DNA from: Thermodesulfobacteriota bacterium
Lineage (GTDB): Bacteria > Desulfobacterota > Desulfobacteria > Desulfobacterales > B30-G6
Length of the DNA stretch: 60,915 nucleotides
Direction: 5' to 3'
NCBI GenBank assembly: GCA_039714495.1
Contig: JBDLJD010000003.1
Coordinates: 1 to 60,915, forward strand
Part shown: in pieces, positions 39,119 to 53,755 of the stretch
How the letters are laid out: every line of letters starts with the position of its first letter
Numbering within the stretch: position 1 is the stretch's first letter
Translations under genes and position numbers: made by a program
The notes under the pieces: generated by a model
Database searches by the model: none
What the model was told of the DNA's origin: nothing
What the model saw: only the letters and a program-made list of their open reading frames with translations

Positions 39119-40597
39119 ATGCTGATAGTCCCTGTTTCTGGAAAAATAAGCCTGCGCAACCCGCCTGTTATCACCATAGCGCTCATCATTCTAAACTGTA
39201 TCATTTTTTTTGCATTCCAGTTTAATGAAAACCAAATTTATTGGGAAGCCGAAGAATACTATCGCGAATCGGGTTTATTGGACATAGAAATAGATGCATA
39301 CCTGAAATACAGGTATACAGCAGAGCAGCAGGACGCGATGTTCGCCGGCAGCGAAAAAATAAGCCAGGAAAAACGATTTACGCTGTACTCAGAAATGCGC
39401 CAGGACTGGGAATTTATGCACATGCTGGAAGGCGAGCAGATTATTCGGCCACAAGATGCAGTATATCAGGAGTGGAAGGCACTTAGGGCTGAATATACCG
39501 ATCTATTGTCCAGGATTGTGTCAAAAAAATATGGATTCAAGCCCGCCAGCCCAAGCATTATAACCTTATTCACGCATATGTTTCTCCATGGTGGATTTGG
39601 TCACCTGGTGGGCAACATGATTTTCTTGTGGCTGGTCGGAAGCCTGCTTGAAATGGGCAGTGGGCGATTTTTTTATTTTACGACCTATATTCTAACGGGT
39701 TTGGGGGCTGTTGGGTTGTTCTGGGTAGGGAATATGCATTCTAATGTCCCCTTGGTTGGAGCGTCCGGCGCCATTGCAGGGTTGATGGGAACTTTTACCG
39801 TTCTATATGGATGGAAAAAAATAAAAATCTTTTTCTCGATAGGTGTATTTTTCAATTATTTTAAAATCAGGGCGATTGTACTTTTGCCCCTGTGGGTTGG
39901 CGCCGAGGTCTACCAAATTGCCTTCAGCGAGGTGAGACATGTGGCATATCTTGCTCATGTCGGGGGGTTGATCTCCGGTGCTTTGTTAGGGTTGATAAAC
40001 AAACGATTTCTTGGGTTTTATGATGAAGATGTTGTCGACCCCGAACCTGAAGATGAAATATCTCCCCTGATTGAAAAGGCATTGGCGCATATTGGGCAGT
40101 TGGAAATGGAGCAGGGAGAGGCATTGCTGCAGGACGTCTTGAAAAAAGAGCCGAAAAATATTGCAGCCCTGAAACACCTCTATGAAATCCATAAAACGGA
40201 TCCGGAAAAGCCGCAATTTCATACAACCGCCAAACAGGTGCTGAAGCTGTCATCGAGAAATGAAGAAACCCATAGTATTACTGTGGATGTATACACCGAT
40301 TATGTAGCGAGAACCAAGCTGCCCAAGCTATCGGCAGGCTTATACCTGCGCTTAATAACAATTTTAGCAGGCAAAGGGCATTTAAAAAAAGCCGAACAGA
40401 TAGCAATAATGTTTCTAAATAAAAAGCCAGGCTATCAAGGTCTATCAACAGCCCTCCTGAGGTTATCGAATAAATTTAAAATGGAGGGGGACCAGGTAAA
40501 GCACAAGACGTATTTAAATATCATTCTTTCTGAATATTCAAACACCGTTGAAGCAAAACTTGCAAAAGCCGAATTAGACGAACCTGGAAACGTGTAG
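39119..40597 (+). CDS. Rhomboid-family intramembrane serine protease with C-terminal TPR-like domain
   Basis: HMFLHGGFGHLVGNMIFLW, catalytic GASGAIAGLMG and AHVGGLISGALLG motifs. The ~190-aa C-terminal part is helical-repeat-like. Confidence 0.88.
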   Translation: MLIVPVSGKISLRNPPVITIALIILNCIIFFAFQFNENQIYWEAEEYYRESGLLDIEIDAYLKYRYTAEQQDAMFAGSEKISQEKRFTLYSEMRQDWEFMHMLEGEQIIRPQDAVYQEWKALRAEYTDLLSRIVSKKYGFKPASPSIITLFTHMFLHGGFGHLVGNMIFLWLVGSLLEMGSGRFFYFTTYILTGLGAVGLFWVGNMHSNVPLVGASGAIAGLMGTFTVLYGWKKIKIFFSIGVFFNYFKIRAIVLLPLWVGAEVYQIAFSEVRHVAYLAHVGGLISGALLGLINKRFLGFYDEDVVDPEPEDEISPLIEKALAHIGQLEMEQGEALLQDVLKKEPKNIAALKHLYEIHKTDPEKPQFHTTAKQVLKLSSRNEETHSITVDVYTDYVARTKLPKLSAGLYLRLITILAGKGHLKKAEQIAIMFLNKKPGYQGLSTALLRLSNKFKMEGDQVKHKTYLNIILSEYSNTVEAKLAKAELDEPGNV

Positions 40598-40833
40598 CTT
40601 GTGGCAATAAGCCCTATGGTTACAAGTGTATATTCCGATAAATATTCGTACAACGTTATATATTTGATTTTAGGTGATGACGTTGACATCGGGCCGGTCA
40701 CCCTGTACTCTGAAAGTCTGAATGGTTCCTTCCGAAATCGGGGTCGGCAGATGAAGTCCGTCCAAAAATTCTTTGATCATCGGGGCCGTGCCCGTCGCTG
40801 TTGGTCTGCTGCTGTGGACATAAAGGATAGGAA

Positions 40834-41382
40834 ATGAGACGTGTGATGGTTCCCGTATTGTGGGTGCTTCTCGTGATGAGCCTCTCCTATGCCGGCTATT
40901 TCGGCTCCCGGCATTTGGAGGGCGGCCTGTTGCAGTCGTGGATGGCCTGCTTTTTCGGCACCACCTATTTTCTATCCATTGCATTCGGAACACTTTATGT
41001 CTATATCGCGGCCCGGTTGCGGGGGGCCAACCTGCCCCAATGCATCCTGGCATCCCTGGTCAACCCCTCGATATGGATGACCAAGGAGGTGCTGCGCCTG
41101 ACCGAATCGCACCCGTTCCTGGAAAGCCTCTACTGGTTTCTCAACCCCCTGGACCTCTGGCTGCTCTCTTTCGTGATCATGGAAATGGGCCTGGCCACAT
41201 TGATGGTGCGGACCATTCTCAAACAAAAGGGTGAGGAGGTGATCGTTTTTACCATGGGACCGGTGGTAACCGTTCTGGGGAGTTTGACTTTTGCCGTCTC
41301 CATCTATGCGTGGGGTGAAGGCGAAAACATCTATGTCTATTTTCTCGAGGGCTACAGGCTGCTGTTCGGCTACGGCCTGTAG
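40834..41382 (+). CDS. Hypothetical integral membrane protein
   Basis: 182-aa ORF with ~5 hydrophobic segments. It sits at the start of a GC-richer block. Confidence 0.6.
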   Translation: MRRVMVPVLWVLLVMSLSYAGYFGSRHLEGGLLQSWMACFFGTTYFLSIAFGTLYVYIAARLRGANLPQCILASLVNPSIWMTKEVLRLTESHPFLESLYWFLNPLDLWLLSFVIMEMGLATLMVRTILKQKGEEVIVFTMGPVVTVLGSLTFAVSIYAWGEGENIYVYFLEGYRLLFGYGL

Positions 41383-41396
41383 CCGGGAGGTGTTGC

Positions 41397-42797
41397 TTGC
41401 ATCCTATCATGCATAGACAGAATTTCGGCAGGTTCTCTGCAGCCATGCTCATCCTATTGGCGGTTTTCCTGACCTGCACCGCAGCCCAGGCTGTTGCCGG
41501 GGCCGGAGAGGATCGGCCCAACCTTGTATTCATTCTGGGGGATAACCACAATGCCCGAACCATGGGGTGTGTCGGCCATCCTTTCATTAAAACGCCGGGC
41601 ATGGATCGCCTGGCAAGGGAGGGCATTCTTTTTGAAAACGCCTTCAATACCACCAGCCTCTGCAGCCCCTCGCGGGCCAGCATCCTGACCGGCGCCTATG
41701 CTAACAGGCACGGTGTGAAAAACAACCACACCCCCTGGACCGGGCAGATGAAGACCTTTCTGGCCCACCTGTCTGCCGGCGGGTATGCCACGGCCTTCAT
41801 CGGCAAATGGCATATGCCCGGGAAAGGGTTGCCAAAAATGCCTTTTCTGGATTTGTTCGTTTCCTATACCTACAGGGAAGGTCAGGGCGCATATTTCAAC
41901 TGCCCCATGATCGTCAATGGCCAAGAGGTTCGGTCGCGCGTTCCCTATATAACAGCCGAGGTCACGGATTACGCCATCGAGTTCATGCAGAAAGTGCAGG
42001 CGGAGCCGGAGGAAGGCCGCAGGCCTTTTTGCATCTACCTGTCCCACCGACCCGGCCATCCGCCCTTCAAGGCGCCGGATGGCATTGCCGGCATGTATGC
42101 TGAGGCAGATGTAAGCCGTGTGCTGCCGTCCCATGCCGATCCCCTGTGGTACGGCAAGACCAAGGGCAATGTATTCCAGGGGGTCATGATGGGTTCCTAT
42201 GAAAACAAGTACCGGAAGTATTGCGAAACATTGACGGCCATGGACCAGGACATCGTAAGACTTTTGGAAGAAATGGATGCCATGGGACTGGCAAAGAACA
42301 CGGTTGTGATCTACATGGGGGACAACGGCATGCAGTGGGGCACCCACGATTGCCACGGTATCCGTGAAGCATACGAGGATTCCCTGCGGCTGCCGCTGAT
42401 CGTGCGGGCTCCGGGCCTGATACCGGATCCCGGATCCAACAGACGGCAGATGGTGCTGAACATCGACATGGCACCCACGTTCTTGAGTTTGGCCGGGCTG
42501 GGTGTTTCCTCAGCCATGGATGGACAGAGCCTGGTCCCGGTCCTGAAAAACCCCGAGGCCCATGGCCGGGAAAATTTTCTCATCGAGTTCTGGCGCTATT
42601 TCCCGGAAAATACGCCGTCCTACACCGGCATCCGCACCGATCGGTTCAAATACATCGAATTCGCAAGAGGCCGCAGCCCCTGGCTGTTTGACCTGCTCAA
42701 CGACCCCCTTGAAATGCACAACCTGATGGGCACACCCCAAGGAGATAAAATCCTGCCTCAATTGAAAGACCGCCTTGCCCAACTGATTGCCCGGTAA
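41397..42797 (+). CDS. Sulfatase (Cys-type formylglycine motif)
   Basis: Signal-like N-terminus, NLVFILGDNHN, and the CSPSRASILTG sulfatase signature. An alternative ATG lies at 41409. Confidence 0.9.
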   Translation: MHPIMHRQNFGRFSAAMLILLAVFLTCTAAQAVAGAGEDRPNLVFILGDNHNARTMGCVGHPFIKTPGMDRLAREGILFENAFNTTSLCSPSRASILTGAYANRHGVKNNHTPWTGQMKTFLAHLSAGGYATAFIGKWHMPGKGLPKMPFLDLFVSYTYREGQGAYFNCPMIVNGQEVRSRVPYITAEVTDYAIEFMQKVQAEPEEGRRPFCIYLSHRPGHPPFKAPDGIAGMYAEADVSRVLPSHADPLWYGKTKGNVFQGVMMGSYENKYRKYCETLTAMDQDIVRLLEEMDAMGLAKNTVVIYMGDNGMQWGTHDCHGIREAYEDSLRLPLIVRAPGLIPDPGSNRRQMVLNIDMAPTFLSLAGLGVSSAMDGQSLVPVLKNPEAHGRENFLIEFWRYFPENTPSYTGIRTDRFKYIEFARGRSPWLFDLLNDPLEMHNLMGTPQGDKILPQLKDRLAQLIAR

Positions 42798-43920: not shown

Positions 43921-44535
43921 ATGGTGAAGAATAAAAAAACTAAAATCATTGAATTCCCATCCAAATCAGGAACGTCCTCACCAACCGTTACCAAAGGTGG
44001 AATAGAAAATTTTAACGATTTTGAAGAATATGAGGATGACGAATACTTTTATCTTTTAGAGGAAAAAGATTATCAAGGTCTAATTAAATATTGTTTAGAC
44101 CGAGCATCTGACAATCCTGAGGATCTTTATGCAAAAGCCCACCTTGGAAAGGCCTATATTTTAAACGGCAACTATGAAAAAGCTCTAGGCTATTTAACAG
44201 AATGTCATCAACAATATCCTGATATTGATGAATACCAGCATTTATTGTTGGATGTATTATTTGGGATGGGAATGACTGAAGATGATTATGATTGGTCCAA
44301 AAAGCCTGTCGTATTACGACTTAACAAAGATATTTTCGATGCCTGCTATTCGTATTTGAGATCCAAAAGAAAGCCCAGATCAATATACGATATCCATAAC
44401 GAATTTGTTTTTAAAGGGTATGTAGCTTTCACGCCTGAAGACCTATTATTAGAACTCTTGGATGATCAAAGATTCATTGCTGATGACCCTGAAGACCAAG
44501 AATTGTTACGTGTAGTTCGTAAAAAGGATCTATAA
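43921..44535 (+). CDS. Hypothetical protein (acidic N-terminus, TPR-like middle)
   Basis: 204-aa ORF in the AT-rich island. The LYAKAHLGKAYILNGNYEKALGYLTECHQQYP segment is TPR-like. Confidence 0.55.
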   Translation: MVKNKKTKIIEFPSKSGTSSPTVTKGGIENFNDFEEYEDDEYFYLLEEKDYQGLIKYCLDRASDNPEDLYAKAHLGKAYILNGNYEKALGYLTECHQQYPDIDEYQHLLLDVLFGMGMTEDDYDWSKKPVVLRLNKDIFDACYSYLRSKRKPRSIYDIHNEFVFKGYVAFTPEDLLLELLDDQRFIADDPEDQELLRVVRKKDL

Positions 44536-44555
44536 ATATTGGGAAAGGATAATTA

Positions 44556-44774
44556 GTGGATTTATTTGACCAGTACCTGCAACGGAGCCAGGAAATCATT
44601 GGTGATCGAACTCGGGAAGAGATGCGGTATGATAAGGAAGTTTTGAGATGGTTACGTAAAGGGAAAAAATTCAAAAGGCAATTGAAAGAGCCAATAAAAA
44701 ATATCCAAAAGAGGCCCTCGAAGTTAATGAAAAAACGATCAATGACGTTGCCGCTCACTACGATTATTTATTAG
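44556..44774 (+). CDS. Small hypothetical ORF, possibly frameshifted at an A6 run
   Basis: GTG start. After A6 (44664-44669) the -1 frame stays open to TGA 44804-44806 and reads more protein-like. Confidence 0.3.
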   Translation: MDLFDQYLQRSQEIIGDRTREEMRYDKEVLRWLRKGKKFKRQLKEPIKNIQKRPSKLMKKRSMTLPLTTIIY

Positions 44775-45115
44775 AGCATGAAAATATTATGAAAAAGATG
44801 CATTGATGAGATCCCAACACATCATTTCAGATATCAAGAGGACGATCTATTTTGACGGATTGTCCATTTTTTGCATTTCGTCGGAAATGGGCTATCTGTA
44901 ATGGATATTATTGACCCTTAGGTGGTTGATATGTGATGGTATCTCAGCTTTTTTGGCGAGATGATAACCTGAACTTATCTCCAACTATCACAAGTTGCAG
45001 CTATAAAAACATTCTTGGTGGATTCCTGATAAAATTCAGACCGAGATGGTATCTACATATCTTAGGCTGAGCAACATAATAGTTTTTTAGATATCCTCGT
45101 CGAGAATCTCTTTTC

Positions 45116-45808
45116 ATGCAAACTTTCATTCTTAATACCTGGGAAAAAATAAGGTACCAATATCGTGGAGTTGGTTTCGCGAAAACGATAATTAAAATAG
45201 CATATAAAATCTTATCTCCTATATATAGGCACGATACTTATTATATAGCTGTGGAAACCATTCACACTGACATACCAGGAGCCAATAAAATAAATAATAG
45301 CGAGATTGAATGTGTTGTGCATGAAAAGTCAGATAGATTTCGATTGTGCGAATACAAAACAATTCCTTCAATTCCAATGAATAAAATAAAAAAATTACTA
45401 GAAAATCCTAACAGCATCAGTATCATAGCATTTCGGCAAGATAGAATTGACCCTGAGAAAAAGATTGTTGGGTTTCGGATATGTGAACCAGGTATATTCT
45501 ATGCTCCCGGTGTTAAATTCAGAGTTTCCCCTGCGATCCTGGCCATCATCCATACTGAGGTTTTACCAAAGTACAGAGGCCAAAAAATCAACGCTATCTT
45601 ATGGAAAGCCACTTATGAGATTTGCCAACAAAGAGAGTTTACAAAAGCCTATGGTTTAATATCAATACATAATTATCAGTCTTTAAAATCGCACGGAAAA
45701 TTAGGTGAAATTAAGGCCGAGAAGAAGTTTGAACTATTCTCTTTTGCTTTCGGGCTTCACAAAAGATATACACCTCCAAATGAAGTTAAAAAATTGTTAG
45801 AATCATAA
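45116..45808 (+). CDS. GNAT-like N-acetyltransferase (tentative)
   Basis: 230-aa ORF. HTEVLPKYRGQKINAILWKATYEICQQ resembles GNAT motif A (Q/R-x-x-G-x-G/A-like). Confidence 0.5.
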   Translation: MQTFILNTWEKIRYQYRGVGFAKTIIKIAYKILSPIYRHDTYYIAVETIHTDIPGANKINNSEIECVVHEKSDRFRLCEYKTIPSIPMNKIKKLLENPNSISIIAFRQDRIDPEKKIVGFRICEPGIFYAPGVKFRVSPAILAIIHTEVLPKYRGQKINAILWKATYEICQQREFTKAYGLISIHNYQSLKSHGKLGEIKAEKKFELFSFAFGLHKRYTPPNEVKKLLES

Positions 45809-46403
45809 GTCTCAATCTGCCCATTGCCGATGTCTCCAATATAAATAAAGATATCAAGACCTTTAAATATTGCCGGTGTTTAAAAATTATCACCACCGGC
45901 AGAATCTTTCATCGGCAAGCGTTTCCGTGATACCGTGGCGATGACCAGATGGTGTCTTATATTTATCCAATTTATCGGATAGTTGAGATCGTTATATAAT
46001 AGAAATACAAAGAGTTATGCCTGCCAGCATAGCACAGAAAAAATATATTATCGCTCCATGTATCGGTACTGCGAAGATCCGGAATCTTGACCTAATCAGC
46101 CGATTCATGTATACTGATCATATTGCATATAAATCCCACCTGATCTGATGCTGGATCTCCATATTTTAGCCTGACCTGACCTCAACCAGGATCTGCTCTT
46201 ATCTTTCTAAGAAGTATCATCTTCTTTAAACCGTACTTTGCTGAAACGAAGGTGATCGACATGCCCAATGAAATAAAGTCACAAGCAAACTAAGAGCCTT
46301 CCTATCTGGGGCCGCCAAAAGTAACTCCATACTGATGTCTTTTGATGAAGTCTTAGGTGATATGAAATTTTGCCACTATGAAAAAGAAGATTGATTGAAC
46401 TTA

Positions 46404-46432
46404 GCCTAAAAATCAAGATTTAGGCATTTTTT
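46404..46432 (+). terminator. Intrinsic-terminator-like hairpin in the leader of the protease gene
   Basis: GCCTAAA (46404-46410) pairs with TTTAGGC (46419-46425) and is followed by A-T6. It ends 4 nt before the GGGAGG SD, which starts at 46437. Confidence 0.5.
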
Positions 46433-46449
46433 GAATTGGGAGGTGCTAT

Positions 46450-48030
46450 ATGAAATTTTTTTCCAGACGCTACTTTAAAATATTCATTGTGTATGTCGGG
46501 ATTATATTTTCACTTTCACTTGTCCAATGGGTGGGAACCGGGGCTTTTCTCAAATCAACTTTAGCTGAATCTTCAGATATTACCATCGGTTTCTACAAAG
46601 ACAATCCTGGCATCGGAAAAGCAATTGAAGTCCAAAACAGGTATAAGGCACAATTGATAGGTATTCCAGGTGTTGTGGGGATTGGTACCGGAATCGGCCC
46701 AAACGGTCACGCAGTTATAAGAGTATTTACACGCAGGACCGGTTTGCCTGGAATCCCTGAAAAACTTGATGATATGCCCGTGCATGTAAAGGTAACAGGG
46801 GACTTTATCGCTTTGGATGATCCTGCTGCGAGATTTGATAGACCTGTTCCCATAGGTGTCTCAACTGGTCATCCTGACATTACCGCCGGAACACTTGGTG
46901 CCCGCGTAATAGATGGAGACGGCGATGTTTACGCATTAAGCAACAACCATGTTTATGCTAACATCAATAGCGCAAGTTTGGGTGATCCTGCACTTCAGCC
47001 AGGTTCATATGATGATGGTGTTTATCCTGATGACCAAATAGGAGAACTTTGCGGTTTTAATCCGATTGATTTCTCTGTTTTTGGCTCCAATACAATGGAT
47101 GCTGCGATTGCATGTACCACCCCCAACGAGGTGGGAAATGCGACCTTGATGGGGGGGTATGGGATGCCCAGCTCCCAAATATTTAATGATTCTGATCCTG
47201 TTGACGGGGTTTTTGACAATTTGAATACGCTGCTACTGCAACCGGTTCAGAAATTCGGGAGAACGACCGGCCTAACACATGGTGAAATCACAGAAATTAA
47301 CGTAACGACTATGGTCTGCTACGCATATTGTGATAATATATTGTTCGCCGAATATGCATGGTTTGACGACCAGATTGCAATCAGCAGCGTTACCAGCGAT
47401 GCTTTTAGCTTGGGGGGTGACTCAGGCTCTCTGGTTGTAACTGATGACAGCTATAATAATCCTGTCGGTTTATTATTCGCTGGCAGTTCGACGACCACAC
47501 TGGCGAATCGAATTGACTTGGTACTCAATCAGTTCGAAGTGAGTATAGACGGCTCACAGCCAACTGTACCTGGTGATGAAATATGCAATAACGGCACTGA
47601 TGATGATTCAGATGATTTAATTGACTGCGAAGATTCGGATTGTTTTGAGGATCCTGCTTGCTTAAATACCGAGTCTGGGAATTTGTGCTTTGATAAAGAA
47701 GACAATGATCAAGATCTCGCAATAGACTGTTATGACACTGACTGCAAAGATGAATGTGCAACTGAATACTGTTTTAAGGGGATAGCAGATGAGAATTGTA
47801 ATCCCCAAAAAGACGGTCCATTATGTCCTGATTGTTTAGGCACCACTCAACCCGATACTGAAATAGAATGCGGTAACAATATTGATGATGACGCCGATGA
47901 TTTAACTGATTGCGATGATCCCGACTGTTTTAGTAGTCCAAATTGTGATGATTGCCAGCCGAAAGGTTCTTTCTGCGACATGGATGGAGATTGTTGTTCT
48001 GGAAAGTGCCGAGGGGGAAAATGTAGATAA
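46450..48030 (+). CDS. Secreted S1 (chymotrypsin-fold) serine protease with a Cys-rich acidic C-terminal extension
   Basis: Signal/TM segment FKIFIVYVGIIFSLSL. Candidate catalytic triad: LSNNHVYAN (His), NTMDAAIA (Asp) and GGDSGSLVV (Ser). From 47584 there are three C..DDD.DD..DC.D.DC repeats and a terminal six-Cys motif. Confidence 0.8.
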   Translation: MKFFSRRYFKIFIVYVGIIFSLSLVQWVGTGAFLKSTLAESSDITIGFYKDNPGIGKAIEVQNRYKAQLIGIPGVVGIGTGIGPNGHAVIRVFTRRTGLPGIPEKLDDMPVHVKVTGDFIALDDPAARFDRPVPIGVSTGHPDITAGTLGARVIDGDGDVYALSNNHVYANINSASLGDPALQPGSYDDGVYPDDQIGELCGFNPIDFSVFGSNTMDAAIACTTPNEVGNATLMGGYGMPSSQIFNDSDPVDGVFDNLNTLLLQPVQKFGRTTGLTHGEITEINVTTMVCYAYCDNILFAEYAWFDDQIAISSVTSDAFSLGGDSGSLVVTDDSYNNPVGLLFAGSSTTTLANRIDLVLNQFEVSIDGSQPTVPGDEICNNGTDDDSDDLIDCEDSDCFEDPACLNTESGNLCFDKEDNDQDLAIDCYDTDCKDECATEYCFKGIADENCNPQKDGPLCPDCLGTTQPDTEIECGNNIDDDADDLTDCDDPDCFSSPNCDDCQPKGSFCDMDGDCCSGKCRGGKCR

Positions 48031-48992: not shown

Positions 48993-50606
48993 ATGGCAAA
49001 GAGAGCTACCCGTCAATGGCGAATCAATGCAGTTTTGGCCATTATTCTGATGATACTCCTGTGCGGTGTGTCCAGCGTCTTCAGCAGCACTGCCACCGAT
49101 TCCCGGGCGCTGGATGTCGTTTACATCGATCTGCCCCATGTCCCGGGCAACGATAAAATGCCGGGGGTGCCCTTTCCGCACGACCGACACACCCGGGCTC
49201 GGGAAAATAGCAAGGACTGTAGCGCCTGCCATCTTCAGCAGAAAGAGCGTTTTGTCTTCAGGTTCAAAAGGCTGATCGACGGCACGCCTGATGCGGACAT
49301 GGCCGTGTATCACGAGAATTGTGTTGCCTGCCACGCAGAAACCAAAAGCGCCGGTAAGACGTCAGGTCCCCTGGACGGCGACTGCCGCTCCTGCCACACG
49401 ACCGTTTCCGGCGATGCACCGGCCTGGCAACCGATCCGCTTTGACAAGTCCCTGCACTTTCGCCACGTATCGTCCAAAGCCATACGGCCGGGCAACATGT
49501 ACGATGACACCAACTGCAGCGCCTGCCACCATATTTATGATGAGACAATCCAGAAAACTGTCCGCAAAAACGGTACGGAGGAGAGCTGCTTTTACTGCCA
49601 TAAACCCCAAAAGACGGAAAGGTCGCCGTCCATCCGCTGGGCATCGCATGCCTCCTGCGTCAGCTGCCATCAGAGCCTCAAAACCCGCGTCCGGAAAACC
49701 GGGCCCGTGGAGTGTGCCGGGTGCCACGATGCGGCGGTCCAGCAGCAGATCGAGGTGGTAGAAAATATTCCGCGCCTGGAACGCAAGCAGCCCGACACTG
49801 TGCTTTTAGCCAGTTGGATGTCTGCAGACGGCGGTTCTGCGGAAGCCATGAAAAAGGTTATGCAGCCGGTGGCGTTCAATCATGTAGTGCATGAATTTAA
49901 GGCCGACAGCTGCCGGGCTTGTCACCACCAGACCCTGAAAAATTGTGCCCAATGCCACACGGAAACCGGGGATGAAAAAGGCGGCGGGGTGCAGCTGGCC
50001 CGGGCCATGCACAACAGCGTATCAACACACAGCTGCATTGGATGCCACAGGCAGGTAACAATGACGAAAGATTGTGCCGGCTGCCATGCAGCCATGCCCC
50101 AGAAACGGTTTTCTCAGCTTGCCTGCGCCCAATGTCATGCCGTGGACCGTGAAGCCATGGGCCCCTTTCCCATGGCGGCGGAAGAGCGCACGGCTGTGGC
50201 AGAGAACAACCTCAATTCACGCCAGAGAGCCTTCATGACCCTTGCGGATGAGCACATACCTGAAATCGTAAAAATCGACGGCATGAAGGACAAATATGAG
50301 GCCGTGGATTTTCCCCACCGGCAGATTGTGCGGGCTATTTTTACCAGAATTAAAGAAAACAAGATGGCGGCCTATTTTCACGGCAACGATGTCACCCTGT
50401 GCGCCGGTTGCCACCACAACGCCCCGGCCACGCTCAATCCGGCAAGGTGTGCCGCGTGCCATGGAAAGGCTTTTACCAATGATGAGGATGGACGGCCGGG
50501 ACTCAAGGGGGCCTACCACGGTCAGTGCATGGCCTGCCATGAGGCGATGGGCATTGAAGAACCGGCATCCACTGATTGCATCAAATGCCATAAAGAGAAA
50601 GGATGA
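48993..50606 (+). CDS. hmcA: 16-haem high-molecular-weight cytochrome c
   Basis: Signal peptide, and I count 16 CxxCH motifs in 537 aa. It is the first gene of an Hmc-type six-gene set. Confidence 0.9.
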   Translation: MAKRATRQWRINAVLAIILMILLCGVSSVFSSTATDSRALDVVYIDLPHVPGNDKMPGVPFPHDRHTRARENSKDCSACHLQQKERFVFRFKRLIDGTPDADMAVYHENCVACHAETKSAGKTSGPLDGDCRSCHTTVSGDAPAWQPIRFDKSLHFRHVSSKAIRPGNMYDDTNCSACHHIYDETIQKTVRKNGTEESCFYCHKPQKTERSPSIRWASHASCVSCHQSLKTRVRKTGPVECAGCHDAAVQQQIEVVENIPRLERKQPDTVLLASWMSADGGSAEAMKKVMQPVAFNHVVHEFKADSCRACHHQTLKNCAQCHTETGDEKGGGVQLARAMHNSVSTHSCIGCHRQVTMTKDCAGCHAAMPQKRFSQLACAQCHAVDREAMGPFPMAAEERTAVAENNLNSRQRAFMTLADEHIPEIVKIDGMKDKYEAVDFPHRQIVRAIFTRIKENKMAAYFHGNDVTLCAGCHHNAPATLNPARCAACHGKAFTNDEDGRPGLKGAYHGQCMACHEAMGIEEPASTDCIKCHKEKG

Positions 50607-50619
50607 TTGAGGTAAAGTT

Positions 50620-51720
50620 ATGGGTATAACCCGAAGAAAATTCCTCGGCTGGGTCGGTGCAGCGACAGGAACATCCGTGATGATGGGTAAAAATGCCTCG
50701 GCCGTTTCCAACAAACACTTTGAGGGCTACCCAGGAAGCTTTGGCGTGCTGCATGATACCACCCGGTGCATCGGCTGCCGAAAATGCGAGCAGGCCTGCA
50801 ATACCGTCAATGCGTTGCCCGCTCCGGAAATAGCTTTTGACGACCTGGGCGTGCTGGAGAAGAACCGGCGCACGAGCGATGATGCCTACACGGTGGTTAA
50901 CCATTTCGAAACCGGCCAGGGCACCTTGCCGACGTTTGTCAAGATCCAGTGCAACCACTGCCTGGAGCCTGCCTGCGCATCTGCCTGCTTTGTCAAAGCG
51001 TTCAGAAAGGACAAAACAGGCGCGGTGACGTATGACGAGTCTCTTTGCGTGGGATGCCGGTACTGCATGGTCGCCTGTCCTTTCAACATTCCGGCCTATG
51101 AGTACGACGAGGCGATAACCCCCCGGGTGATGAAGTGCACCCTCTGTAAACCCCGCATTGAAAAAGGCCAGTTGCCGGGGTGTGTGGAAATCTGTCCCAA
51201 GGAAGCCCTGACATTCGGTACGCGCACGCAGCTCATCAAGGAGGCGCGGCGCAGGATCGACCGTTTTCCGGGCCGCTATGTGGACCATGTTTACGGTGAG
51301 AAAGAAATGGGGGGCACGTCGTGGCTCTACCTTAGCGGACAAGCGTTCAACGAAATAGGCCTGCGGGAAGATTTGGGGGTTACACCGGCCCCCAGCCTGA
51401 CCGCCGGTCCTTTGTCGGCGGTTCCCATTATCGTGGGGCTGTGGCCGGTACTGTTGACGGGCATTTGGGCCATATCCAGGCGCAAGGACCAGATCGCCGA
51501 CCAGGAACGCATTTCAGCCGTGGCGGCAACAACGGCTGACGCCAATGAGGAGATGCAGGTCAAGCTGGCGGAGCTGAAGGACAAGCTGAACAAGGAAAAA
51601 GAGGCGGCCATCAATCTGGAGGTCAAGAAAGCGCTGGAGGAAGCGGCAAAGCAGGCAGAGGCGGAAAAAGCGCCGGCAGAAGATGAAGATGCTGCTGAAG
51701 CGCCCAAGGAGGAAAAATAA
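50620..51720 (+). CDS. hmcB: Hmc complex iron-sulfur subunit (4Fe-4S, Tat signal, C-terminal TM anchor)
   Basis: [13 protein letters not shown] Tat motif. Ferredoxin-type clusters [36 protein letters not shown] and CTLCKPR..CVEICP. There is one TM segment and a K/E/A-rich tail. Confidence 0.88.
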
Positions 51721-52893
51721 ATGTCAGACGATACGACCCGTGCTGATACCAGGATATTAACCCCATTCAACGTGATTGCCGGCAGTATCATTCTCGTGGG
51801 CCTGGTATTGACCGTACTGCGCTTCACCAAGGGGATCGGAGCGGTAACCAACCTCGATGACAACAATCCCTGGGGGTTGTGGATCGGCTTTGACCTTCTG
51901 TGCGGTGTGGCCCTGGCAGCAGGCGGGTATGTCACGTCCGCCACCTGCTACATTTTCGGCCTCAAACGCTTTCATTCCGCGGTTAGGCCGGCGATTCTGA
52001 CCGCTTTCCTGGGGTATGCCCTGGTGGTTTTTGCGCTCAACTTCGATGTGGGCCGTCCCTGGCGCCTGCCCTACCCGATTTTCTTTTCCCCGGGGACCAC
52101 GTCCCTGCTCTATGAAGTGGGCTTGTGCGTGTTCCTTTATCTCATGGTCCTGCTCATCGAATACAGTCCGGCCGCCCTGGAGTGGCTGGGTTTCAGGAAA
52201 ATAAGAAATATTATTGTGCGTCTGACCCTGGTGCTGACCATTTTCGGCGTTGTTCTATCCACGCTGCACCAGTCCTCGCTGGGGGCCTTGTTCATGATCG
52301 CACCGTCCAAGCTCCACCCCCTGTGGTATTCGGGATACCTGCCCGTGTACTTTTTTGTTTCCAGCATTTTTGCCGGCATGTCCATGGTGATTTTCGAAGG
52401 CTCCCTGGCGCACCGTTATCTGCACCATAAGATGGATGAAACCCATCTGGCAGAAAGCGAAGGGGTTGCCCTGGGGTTTGCCAAGGCTGCCGCTTTCGTG
52501 ATGATGGGATATGTGGGCATCAAAGTGATCGGTCTGGCCATCGACAACAACTGGCACTACCTGGCCACCGGGTGGGGGGCCTGGTTCCTGGTGGAACTGA
52601 TCGGCTTCGTGGCCTTGCCGGCCTTTGCCTACGCTTTGGCCGCCAGGGAGCGCAACCTGCGCCTGGCAAGGTGGGCGGCGATCTGGTCGGTGTTGGGGCT
52701 GGTCCTCAACCGTTTGAATATTTCCCTGGTGGCATTCAACTGGCACCTGCCGTCGGCAGAGCGCTATTTCCCCAGCTGGATGGAGATTGCCATTTCCGTG
52801 TTCATCGTCACCGTCGGCATCGTGGTTTACCGTTTCATCTCCACCCACATGCCGATTTTGTACGAGCATCCGGATTACCGCCATGAGCATTGA
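51721..52893 (+). CDS. hmcC: Hmc complex integral membrane subunit (NrfD/PsrC family)
   Basis: 390 aa with ~10 TM segments. The ATG directly abuts the hmcB stop codon. Confidence 0.88.
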   Translation: MSDDTTRADTRILTPFNVIAGSIILVGLVLTVLRFTKGIGAVTNLDDNNPWGLWIGFDLLCGVALAAGGYVTSATCYIFGLKRFHSAVRPAILTAFLGYALVVFALNFDVGRPWRLPYPIFFSPGTTSLLYEVGLCVFLYLMVLLIEYSPAALEWLGFRKIRNIIVRLTLVLTIFGVVLSTLHQSSLGALFMIAPSKLHPLWYSGYLPVYFFVSSIFAGMSMVIFEGSLAHRYLHHKMDETHLAESEGVALGFAKAAAFVMMGYVGIKVIGLAIDNNWHYLATGWGAWFLVELIGFVALPAFAYALAARERNLRLARWAAIWSVLGLVLNRLNISLVAFNWHLPSAERYFPSWMEIAISVFIVTVGIVVYRFISTHMPILYEHPDYRHEH

Positions 52894-52916
52894 TAGCCAA
52901 AGTTGAGGAGATTAGA

Positions 52917-53060
52917 ATGGATAGCATTTATTATACCCTGCAGGATTTCATGCTGCATTCAAAAAACATCACCTACATCGTGATGGGTATCGTGCTGATC
53001 GCCCTTCCGCTTTTCTGGCGATTTCTGTCGGGCAGGGACGAGAAAAAAAGGACATATTGA
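52917..53060 (+). CDS. hmcD: Small single-TM membrane protein at the HmcD position
   Basis: 47-aa ORF absent from the supplied track: MDSIYYTLQDFMLHSKNITYIVMGIVLIALPLFWRFLSGRDEKKRTY. GAGGAG lies 7 nt upstream. It sits between the hmcC and hmcE homologues. Confidence 0.6.
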   Translation: MDSIYYTLQDFMLHSKNITYIVMGIVLIALPLFWRFLSGRDEKKRTY

Positions 53061-53077
53061 TATAAACGGAGGATTTC

Positions 53078-53755
53078 ATGTACGGATTCATAACCGGCCC
53101 CCTGTTTTGGCTTTCCATTGCCATATTCGTCACTGGCATGGCCGTGCGTTTTGTGATGTATTTCAAAGGCCTTCACTGGCAGCTGGACCGTGTTGCCTAC
53201 AGGGCCTTTCCCCTGCAGGGGCTGAAAGGGGCCTGGCGGTCTATCTACCGGTGGCTGCTGCCTTTTGGCACCCACAGCTGGCGTAAACAGCCTTTTATGA
53301 CAGTCATATTCTTCGGGTTCCATATCGGTGCTGTCCTGGTGCCTCTTTTTCTGCTGGCGCACAATGTATTTTTAAAGGAGAAGATCGGTTTTTCCCTGGT
53401 CACTCTGAATCCGGCCGTGGCCGATATCCTGACCTGGGCGGTGGTGGTCAGTGCTGTTTTACTGGCCTTGCGGCGGGTAGCCCTGCCCGAAGTCAGAATT
53501 CTGACAACACCATACGACTACTTTATCCTGCTGCTGTCGGTGGCGCCTTTTGTAACCGGTCTCCTGGCCCGGTACGAGGCAGGCAGCTACTCTTTTTGGC
53601 TGGTTCTGCACATTCTTTGTGGGGAAACTCTGCTCATCATGGCGCCCTTTACCAAGCTGTCGCACATTGTTCTGTTCTTTGCTTCCAGGGCGCAGCTGGG
53701 CATGGACTACGGCATCAAGCGGGGGGGGATGAAGAATAAAGGGATGGCCTGGTAA
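53078..53755 (+). CDS. hmcE: Hmc complex membrane cytochrome-b-like subunit (NarI/DsrM/HdrE family)
   Basis: 225 aa, ~5 TM segments, with conserved His in TM segments (FGFHIGAVLVP, LHILCGE, KLSHIV). Confidence 0.85.
   Translation: MYGFITGPLFWLSIAIFVTGMAVRFVMYFKGLHWQLDRVAYRAFPLQGLKGAWRSIYRWLLPFGTHSWRKQPFMTVIFFGFHIGAVLVPLFLLAHNVFLKEKIGFSLVTLNPAVADILTWAVVVSAVLLALRRVALPEVRILTTPYDYFILLLSVAPFVTGLLARYEAGSYSFWLVLHILCGETLLIMAPFTKLSHIVLFFASRAQLGMDYGIKRGGMKNKGMAW

Follow-up and report, generated by a model that had tools for sequence, protein, structure and literature searches.

A knottin-like tail on a secreted Nal1-type protease of a Desulfobacterales bacterium: a candidate targeting or retention module

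Why does a bacterial protease end in a cysteine pattern resembling that of venom peptides? The question arises from a 60.9-kb stretch of DNA (60,915 nucleotides, here called the window; contig JBDLJD010000003.1 of assembly GCA_039714495.1, Thermodesulfobacteriota bacterium), in which a 526-residue open reading frame (ORF) encodes a predicted secreted serine protease with six cysteines in its last 25 residues. Coordinates refer to the + strand throughout, and amino acids are numbered according to this ORF. Translation of 47953–48024 yields CQPKGSFCDMDGDCCSGKCRGGKC; an Arg codon (48025–48027) and a TAA stop codon (48028–48030) come next, and the module is therefore the in-frame C-terminus of the ORF 46450–48030. 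The spacing, C-x6-C-x5-CC-x3-C-x4-C, is exactly that reported by an earlier, sequence-only reading of this DNA, which had recognised in it the C-C-CC-C-C framework of inhibitor-cystine-knot (ICK) peptides, or knottins, and had supposed that the tail is a releasable peptide. In a six-frame translation of the whole window the pattern occurred once, also when the loop lengths were loosened. This single occurrence, the position at the in-frame end of a long ORF and the recurrence of the module in 17 further homologues place the sequence pattern beyond chance. Our preferred answer, to which we give about even credence, is that the tail is a non-released, disulfide-knotted targeting or retention mini-domain of a secreted or membrane-tethered protease.

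We built a profile from 18 tails of the protease family and searched it against all PDB sequences (E < 10). Of 34 matches, 33 were ICK-type peptides, including omega-atracotoxins, maurocalcin, omega-conotoxins, scytotoxins, nemertides and a spinach trypsin inhibitor. The best match was the hairpinless mutant of omega-atracotoxin-Hv1a (1hvw, E 2.3e-4), in which all six cysteines aligned without gaps. The last 42 residues were then modelled with AlphaFold2 from the 18-sequence alignment, giving a predicted local distance difference test score (pLDDT) of about 90 over the tail. When this model was compared with the PDB by Foldseek, 1hvw was again the top match (root-mean-square deviation 0.8 Å over 25 residues, TM 0.83, Foldseek probability 0.98, E 0.1), and 12 of the 13 matches were small knottin-type toxins or inhibitors. 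The tail is a compact (<50 residues) six-cysteine unit with a recognised knottin framework, it matches knottin families at the profile level, and its predicted model has the backbone fold of the class. These results support, at the level of prediction, its assignment as a knottin/ICK-type mini-domain. The framework proposed by the sequence-only reading thus stands as regards spacing, profile matches and a predicted fold that superimposes on an ICK toxin; the knotted connectivity itself (I–IV, II–V, III–VI, with the last bridge passing through the ring of the other two) is inferred by homology, from the gap-free alignment and the 0.8-Å superposition on a solved ICK.

Among solved sequences, the one closest to the tail is a spider toxin. 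Omega-atracotoxin-Hv1a has the identical 6-5-0-3-4 spacing and is 44% identical over 25 residues with all cysteines aligned; the loop 1 glycine and the CCS motif are common to both, and at the position before CC, which is acidic in the tails, the toxin has Asn. The two differ in context: the toxin is a free venom peptide processed from a prepropeptide, whereas the tail is the covalent end of a 526-residue enzyme, and the last loop of the natural toxin carries a 13-residue beta-hairpin where that of the tail is short and basic. The likeness to omega-conotoxin MVIIA noticed in the sequence-only reading is real, in the framework (VI/VII) and in the basic C-terminal half (CCTGSCRSGKC in MVIIA, CCSGKCRGGKC in the tail), but weak (E 0.028, 17.8 bits against the tail profile). 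Loop 2 of MVIIA has six residues instead of five, its Tyr13 and amidation signal have no equivalent in the tail, and no O-superfamily signal or propeptide precedes the tail. The scores of the tail against Pfam families of this kind were below threshold: 11.6 bits for Conotoxin (PF02950, O-superfamily; cut-off 25.1), 19.7 bits for Conotoxin_I2 (PF17557; cut-off 27), where the match covers only model positions 1–25 of a 38-position, eight-cysteine framework XI model, and 19.5 bits for the helminth knottin-like UPF0506 (PF11703; cut-off 23.2) with a 36-residue piece. Membership in the conotoxin I2 or O superfamily was rejected on these scores and on precursor architecture, an enzyme and a stalk preceding the tail.

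We then examined the protein that carries the tail. It matches Pfam Nal1_C (PF25819) with 28 bits against a cut-off of 26.1, and H167, D217 and S325 are invariant across 55 aligned homologues. A Foldseek search with the protease model returned rice NAL1 first (8pmg, E 3.8e-14), followed by S1E proteases (alpha-lytic protease and SGPB); phmmer, run with the protease domain on PDB sequences, found no match. By hidden Markov model, catalytic triad and predicted fold, the host protein is a Nal1-type/S1 chymotrypsin-fold serine protease, and the secreted-type protease named as carrier in the sequence-only reading is borne out.

Homologues of this protein are numerous (6221 at E ≤ 1e-3), but the closest are only 67% identical and come from metagenomic sources only; when GTDB species genomes were searched for near relatives of the full-length protein, the only match was a weak archaeal one. 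We surveyed the C-termini of the best 120 of the 6221 homologues, of which 18 end in the tail. The six cysteines, one glycine in loop 1 and one glycine in loop 4 are invariant in these 18 tails, and variation in loop length is confined to the last loop (3–7 residues), while identity of the 17 further tails to that of the window is only 37–62% over the aligned C-terminal 30 residues. In the remaining 102 homologues the module is wholly absent, with no decayed copy, and the six cysteines are thus conserved as a unit, present all or none among these 120; a lack of such conservation, which the sequence-only reading had named as a ground for refutation, was not observed. At the same position, family members carry other C-terminal parts, which are interchangeable: PKD with a cysteine-containing end, FN3, CARDB, an end with D-x-N-D-D-G motifs (by eye, possibly dockerin-like), or the acidic stalk with the tail. 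When the protease domain alone was placed on a neighbour-joining tree, members with the tail interleaved with members of the PKD type, and the nearest neighbour of the window's protein is of the PKD type. From the interchangeable C-termini and the interleaving on the tree, the tail behaves, at the sequence level, as an accessory module.

How far does the module extend beyond this family? Searched exhaustively with HMMER, 1.84 billion cluster representatives yielded 466 matches to the tail profile at E ≤ 1e-3, 72 of them at E ≤ 1e-10. A word-index protein search with the 42-residue tail alignment returned nothing at E ≤ 1, the database being too large for so short a profile. The top matches were arrays of up to 17–18 tandem copies; array proteins have 4–18 copies and in most cases open with a lipoprotein-type signal, and the arrays stop 1–9 residues from the C-terminus. 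In the best 150 of the 466 matches we counted 372 copies with the exact 6-5-0-3-4 spacing; the first three loop lengths of these arrays are nearly fixed, and the last loop varies from 3 to 14 residues. The array consensus, C-x-P-x-G-x-x-C-x4-[DE]-CC-S-x2-C-..G.-C, agrees with the tail. By contrast with the single copy that ends the protease, arrays usually lack an enzyme domain and have neutral or acidic last loops. Carriers with a taxon label are metagenome-assembled genomes (MAGs) of Myxococcota, Myxococcales, Polyangiales or 'Deltaproteobacteria'. Multi-copy bacterial proteins surpass the Pfam Conotoxin_I2 threshold, solely by summing repeats, and NCBIfam has no model for the module.

With 466 cluster representatives carrying the module, most of them lipoprotein-like proteins with several copies, the view of the sequence-only reading that it is rare in bacteria does not hold. 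'Bacterial knottins' are absent from the list in the 2007 KNOTTIN database paper, but the 2018 paper mentions them as a family, predicted in the database only and without experimental structure; the tandem lipoprotein-like proteins are probably these 'bacterial knottins'. The companion statement, that such modules are poorly documented, is fair in view of the missing NCBIfam model, and phrases such as 'bacterial knottin' were not found in the open-access papers searched. The module is, as judged from these sequence searches, common in bacterial metagenomes but uncurated. The tail profile also retrieved multi-copy ICK proteins of two insects, the mosquito Uranotaenia lowii and the sand fly Lutzomyia longipalpis (P0140 and P0171). 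With these insect proteins among its matches, the bacterial profile cannot be separated by sequence from animal ICK repeats; common descent, transfer and convergence are all conceivable.

Comparison of 37 terminal tails with 806 array modules revealed a difference between single and tandem copies. All 37 terminal tails have exactly one residue past the last cysteine (R in 21, K in 14, Q in 2), and the mean charge of their last loop plus this end residue is +2.7, as against −0.26 for the last loop of array modules. On the strength of these two features, the terminal copies form a distinct, basic-ended subtype. In the window it is set on an extremely acidic stalk, residues 375–501 of which contain 43 Asp/Glu and 4 Lys/Arg.

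The same subtype was found on other enzymes. We scanned species genomes with a degenerate DNA pattern for DCCSGKC.G..C and obtained six loci, one of which (L010, Phycisphaerales) was informative and led to Phycisphaerales and Phycisphaerae MAGs; the same pattern in metagenome contigs gave arrays or noise only. In Phycisphaerae (Planctomycetota) MAGs the tail ends a Peptidase_C25 protein with a propeptide (Pfam E 2.9e-60 and 1.4e-31; ...CVPKGDPCTLDSECCSNRCHRGYCK) and also a protein of about 960 residues with an HExxH motif (...CLPKGEPCSTNAQCCSNRCQRGACK). The N-terminal domain of the latter had no family match, and the HExxH motif is the sole visible sign behind our guess that it is a metalloprotease. 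The two genes are adjacent in one Phycisphaerae MAG (DATKXO010000261.1, L015, 1303–4143 and 4514–7405). Both proteins are large and secreted, with long cysteine-rich stalks of Dicty_CTDC-like repeats and a CGNGVCE...FCCG cassette; the cassette, in the form CGNGVCE...FCCG...CCGD.CEG, is common to the C25 and HExxH proteins and to P0011–P0016. A search with the cassette gave 33 metagenomic C-terminal fragments, of which 17 end in the tail and three in PEP-CTERM-like anchors, one passing TIGR02595 and one just below it.

These findings lead us to a tentative proposal, which we consider possible but short of probable: the basic-ended tail may be a C-terminal module dedicated to secreted proteases of different classes (S1 Nal1-type, C25 gingipain-type and the HExxH protein) across Desulfobacterota-like and Planctomycetota lineages, with one common purpose, either as a surface or matrix retention tag for one conserved receptor or as a clipped knottin acting on other cells. 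We have not found descriptions of the terminal basic-ended subtype, of proteases from different classes and phyla that carry it, or of tandem arrays on this scale in lipoprotein-like proteins. Since the fold class itself is established and a specialist database already includes knottin-like sequences from bacteria, the finding is not categorically new.

What, then, would the tail do for the protease? We propose that it is a single, independently folding ICK/knottin-type mini-domain that would close an acidic, cysteine-rich extracytoplasmic stalk. The 6-5-0-3-n cysteine module to which it belongs is widespread in bacteria; the tail is a lone copy of the terminal subtype, with a basic last loop and a basic C-terminal residue. 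It would most likely stay attached to the protease after secretion. Among the 37 terminal tails, the eight residues before Cys1 contain no conserved basic or other processing site; these residues (−8 to −1) are variable and often acidic, and the tail begins 1–5 residues past the preceding disulfide repeat (two in the window). Through its basic face it could plausibly bind a surface or matrix ligand, anionic or specific in some other way, and would thereby position the protease. By analogy, the tail would do the job of the PKD, FN3, CARDB or D-x-N-D-D-G motif tails or of the PEP-CTERM anchor at the equivalent position in relatives. The PKD, FN3, CARDB and PEP-CTERM modules share its architectural position, protein family and stalk cassette; they differ in being unrelated, much larger folds or, in the case of PEP-CTERM, a transmembrane sorting signal, whereas the tail is a 25-residue disulfide knot.

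Several points weigh against this reading. The model is not independent proof, because ICK toxins were part of the training data of AlphaFold and only 18 sequences underlie the alignment; in the full-length model, moreover, the pLDDT of the tail falls to 61–63. The bacterial members have no experimental structure or disulfide map. The host, an uncultured Desulfobacterales bacterium, belongs to a strictly anaerobic lineage, which makes extracytoplasmic disulfide formation less certain. The protease-domain tree carries no support values, and the ligand and binding function are deduced purely from context.

The tail could instead be a pure structural cap, with a knot that stabilises the stalk or nucleates its oxidative folding and shields the C-terminus from exoproteolysis, without a ligand of its own. 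ICK folds resist proteases, a property that would be useful on a protease, and the tail is always at the extreme C-terminus, 1–5 residues after a disulfide repeat; the lipoprotein-like arrays likewise end close to theirs. However, the basic signature is specific to terminal copies, with K, R or Q last, which suggests an interaction surface beyond stability, and relatives have binding or anchoring modules at equivalent positions. We regard a cap without further function as plausible in itself but rather unlikely.

We see still less reason to believe that the 25-mer is clipped, by its own protease or by another enzyme, and goes on to work as a toxin, a channel blocker, an antimicrobial or a signal. 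The releasable peptide of the sequence-only reading finds no counterpart in a conserved cleavage motif or a propeptide-like spacer, given the short linker and the variable residues before Cys1, and ordinary adhesion domains (PKD, FN3 or CARDB) replace the module in the nearest relatives. The majority of bacterial copies lie in long tandem arrays of lipoprotein-like proteins, and the neighbourhood of the gene is not conserved and contains no processing or export gene; those of three tail-bearing homologues have no such partner in common. The idea does draw on the terminal position of the tail, on the venom ICK peptides as its closest matches in sequence and fold, on its occurrence in proteases from two or more catalytic classes, which could in principle free it, and on the multi-copy insect proteins matched by the same profile; release nevertheless appears unlikely.

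Latency is a further option: the knot, or its C-terminal Lys/Arg, would sit in the active site of the protease to which it is attached, either in cis or in trans, for as long as it is not removed. Some knottins do inhibit serine proteases, and spinach trypsin inhibitor III (4aoq) was among the matches in both sequence (E 0.5) and fold (rank 4); Lys often occupies position 3 of loop 1, and 35 of the 37 tails have a C-terminal K or R. The knottin protease inhibitors, namely the squash type (EETI, MCoTI) and Mirabilis/spinach SOTI-III, resemble the tail in their small six-cysteine knot and association with proteases, and squash inhibitors share with the tail a loop 1 of 6 residues and a loop 2 of 5. 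But the squash spacing, C-x6-C-x5-C-x3-C-x1-C-x5-C with a P1 Arg/Lys in loop 1, has no adjacent CC, whereas Cys III and IV are adjacent in the tail, and a squash-type trypsin inhibitor was rejected on this ground; in SOTI-III, loops 2 and 4 are longer than in the tail. The tail, moreover, sits on unrelated protease classes: an S1 serine protease and a C25 cysteine protease carry it, as does an HExxH protein, and a single canonical inhibitor of 25 residues that suits all three is improbable. Most family members have no tail, and the full-length AlphaFold2 model, which gives per-residue confidence only, yielded no confident docking of the tail on the active site and speaks neither for nor against contact: the protease was confident, but the stalk was disordered (pLDDT 38–49) and neither stalk nor tail was placed. 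We consider inhibition by the tail very unlikely.

Finally, it is highly improbable that the cysteines stay reduced, as ligands of Zn, Fe or Cu or as a thiol-rich sink in an anaerobe: the host is a Desulfobacterales sulfate reducer of sulfidic, reducing habitats and some stalk relatives (P0058 and P0119) have a MopE-type copper-binding motif (PF11617), but the spacing and the conserved Gly, Ser and acidic positions match disulfide-knotted peptides, the cysteine count is even in every module of stalk and tail (4+4+4+4+6), no His/Cys metal-site pattern is present, and most labelled carriers are MAGs of the Myxococcota type, a largely aerobic phylum.

Knottins are valued as scaffolds of exceptional stability, and nearly all those known come from animals, plants, fungi and some viruses. 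The tail offers a short, well-conserved and experimentally tractable bacterial example of a module that is abundant in metagenomes as tandem arrays and, in its basic-ended form, fused to proteases of different classes. If the predicted fold and the proposed binding function are true, the ICK fold would extend to enzyme architectures of prokaryotes, a new tag of minimal size for targeting or retention would be at hand, and one could study whether the fold is ancient, was transferred horizontally or arose by convergence; the question would also arise by what means an anaerobic sulfate reducer makes 11 disulfides outside the cytoplasm and maintains them.

The features of the gene are listed in Table 1. 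The stalk consists of three acidic double-disulfide repeats and one four-cysteine module without family assignment. NCBIfam NF033662, whose repeat is acidic and has 32 residues with four cysteines, matched three stretches of the C-terminal 166 residues with 45.7 bits (cut-off 41), which assigns the stalk (residues 378–499) to this family and leaves the tail outside the matched stretches; a fourth acidic repeat was accordingly rejected as an identity for the tail, which also differs in cysteine number and spacing. The four-cysteine spacer between repeats 2 and 3 had no Pfam or NCBIfam match and is kept in the tail-bearing homologues P0002–P0007, P0017 and P0019.

Table 1. Features of the protease gene and its product (window coordinates; aa, amino acids)
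Feature	Position	Strand	Basis
Whole gene: 526-aa secreted/anchored Nal1-type serine protease with Cys-rich stalk and knottin-like tail	46450–48030	+	ORF; Pfam Nal1_C; homologues; NAL1 fold match
Basic stretch and hydrophobic helix (MKFFSRRYFKIFIVYVGIIFSLSLV...AES), predicted signal peptide or membrane anchor	46450–46584	+	Sequence reading; AlphaFold2 helix, residues 5–30
Pro-domain-like alpha/beta module, aa 53–120	46606–46809	+	pLDDT 90–98; family-conserved
Chymotrypsin-fold protease domain (predicted), aa 130–370	46837–47559	+	Invariant triad; Foldseek
Catalytic residues His167; Asp217; Ser325	46948–46950; 47098–47100; 47422–47424	+	Invariant in alignment
Acidic double-disulfide repeat 1, 4 Cys	47581–47661	+	NCBIfam NF033662 acid_disulf_rpt
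Acidic double-disulfide repeat 2, 4 Cys	47680–47757	+	NF033662
4-Cys spacer module (YCFKG..D.NCNP.KDG..CPDC), aa 437–467	47758–47850	+	Conserved in tail-bearing homologues
Acidic double-disulfide repeat 3, 4 Cys, ending 2 residues ahead of the tail	47863–47946	+	Best NF033662 stretch, aa 469–499
Six-Cys tail module, 24 residues	47953–48024	+	C-x6-C-x5-CC-x3-C-x4-C; ICK fold predicted from profile and model
Single basic residue Arg526 past the last Cys, then TAA stop	48025–48030	+	Belongs to the terminal-subtype signature

Two observations concern the N-terminal half of the protease. Residues 125–147 (46822–46890; RFDRPVPIGVSTGHPDITAG), between the N-terminal module and the protease core, are the most conserved stretch of the family, with many invariant residues, yet their pLDDT is below 50; being conserved yet unplaced in the model, this stretch could be an autoprocessing or maturation site. 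Directly downstream of the tail-bearing homologue P0017 lies a 70-residue ORF (L005 2398–2610; L006 1934–2146) that resembles the N-terminal pro-domain-like module (YGVVGTG...IKVFV...IPEKLEGYPVKIKETGVF) and may be a free-standing pro-domain or a chaperone-like paralogue.

In the window, the protease gene is solitary, with a GNAT-like ORF on one side and an Hmc-type cytochrome/redox operon on the other. Further upstream (39119–42797) are genes for a rhomboid-domain protein (492 residues) and a sulfatase with an SGSH_C domain (466 residues), with no evident link to the protease gene. The G+C content is 0.35–0.42 over 44001–48000, compared with about 0.50 in most of the window. This low-G+C stretch comprises the protease gene, the GNAT-like ORF (45116–45808) and a TPR ORF (43921–44535), and may be an acquired islet. 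The Hmc-like operon directly downstream (48993–53755), of a kind typical of sulfate reducers, encodes a multihaem class III cytochrome c (537 residues), a 4Fe-4S dicluster protein, an NrfD-type membrane subunit and a NarI-like subunit. The NrfD-type, HmcC-like protein is 91–94% identical to proteins of uncultured Desulfobacterales MAGs, which places the host in a sulfate-reducer lineage.

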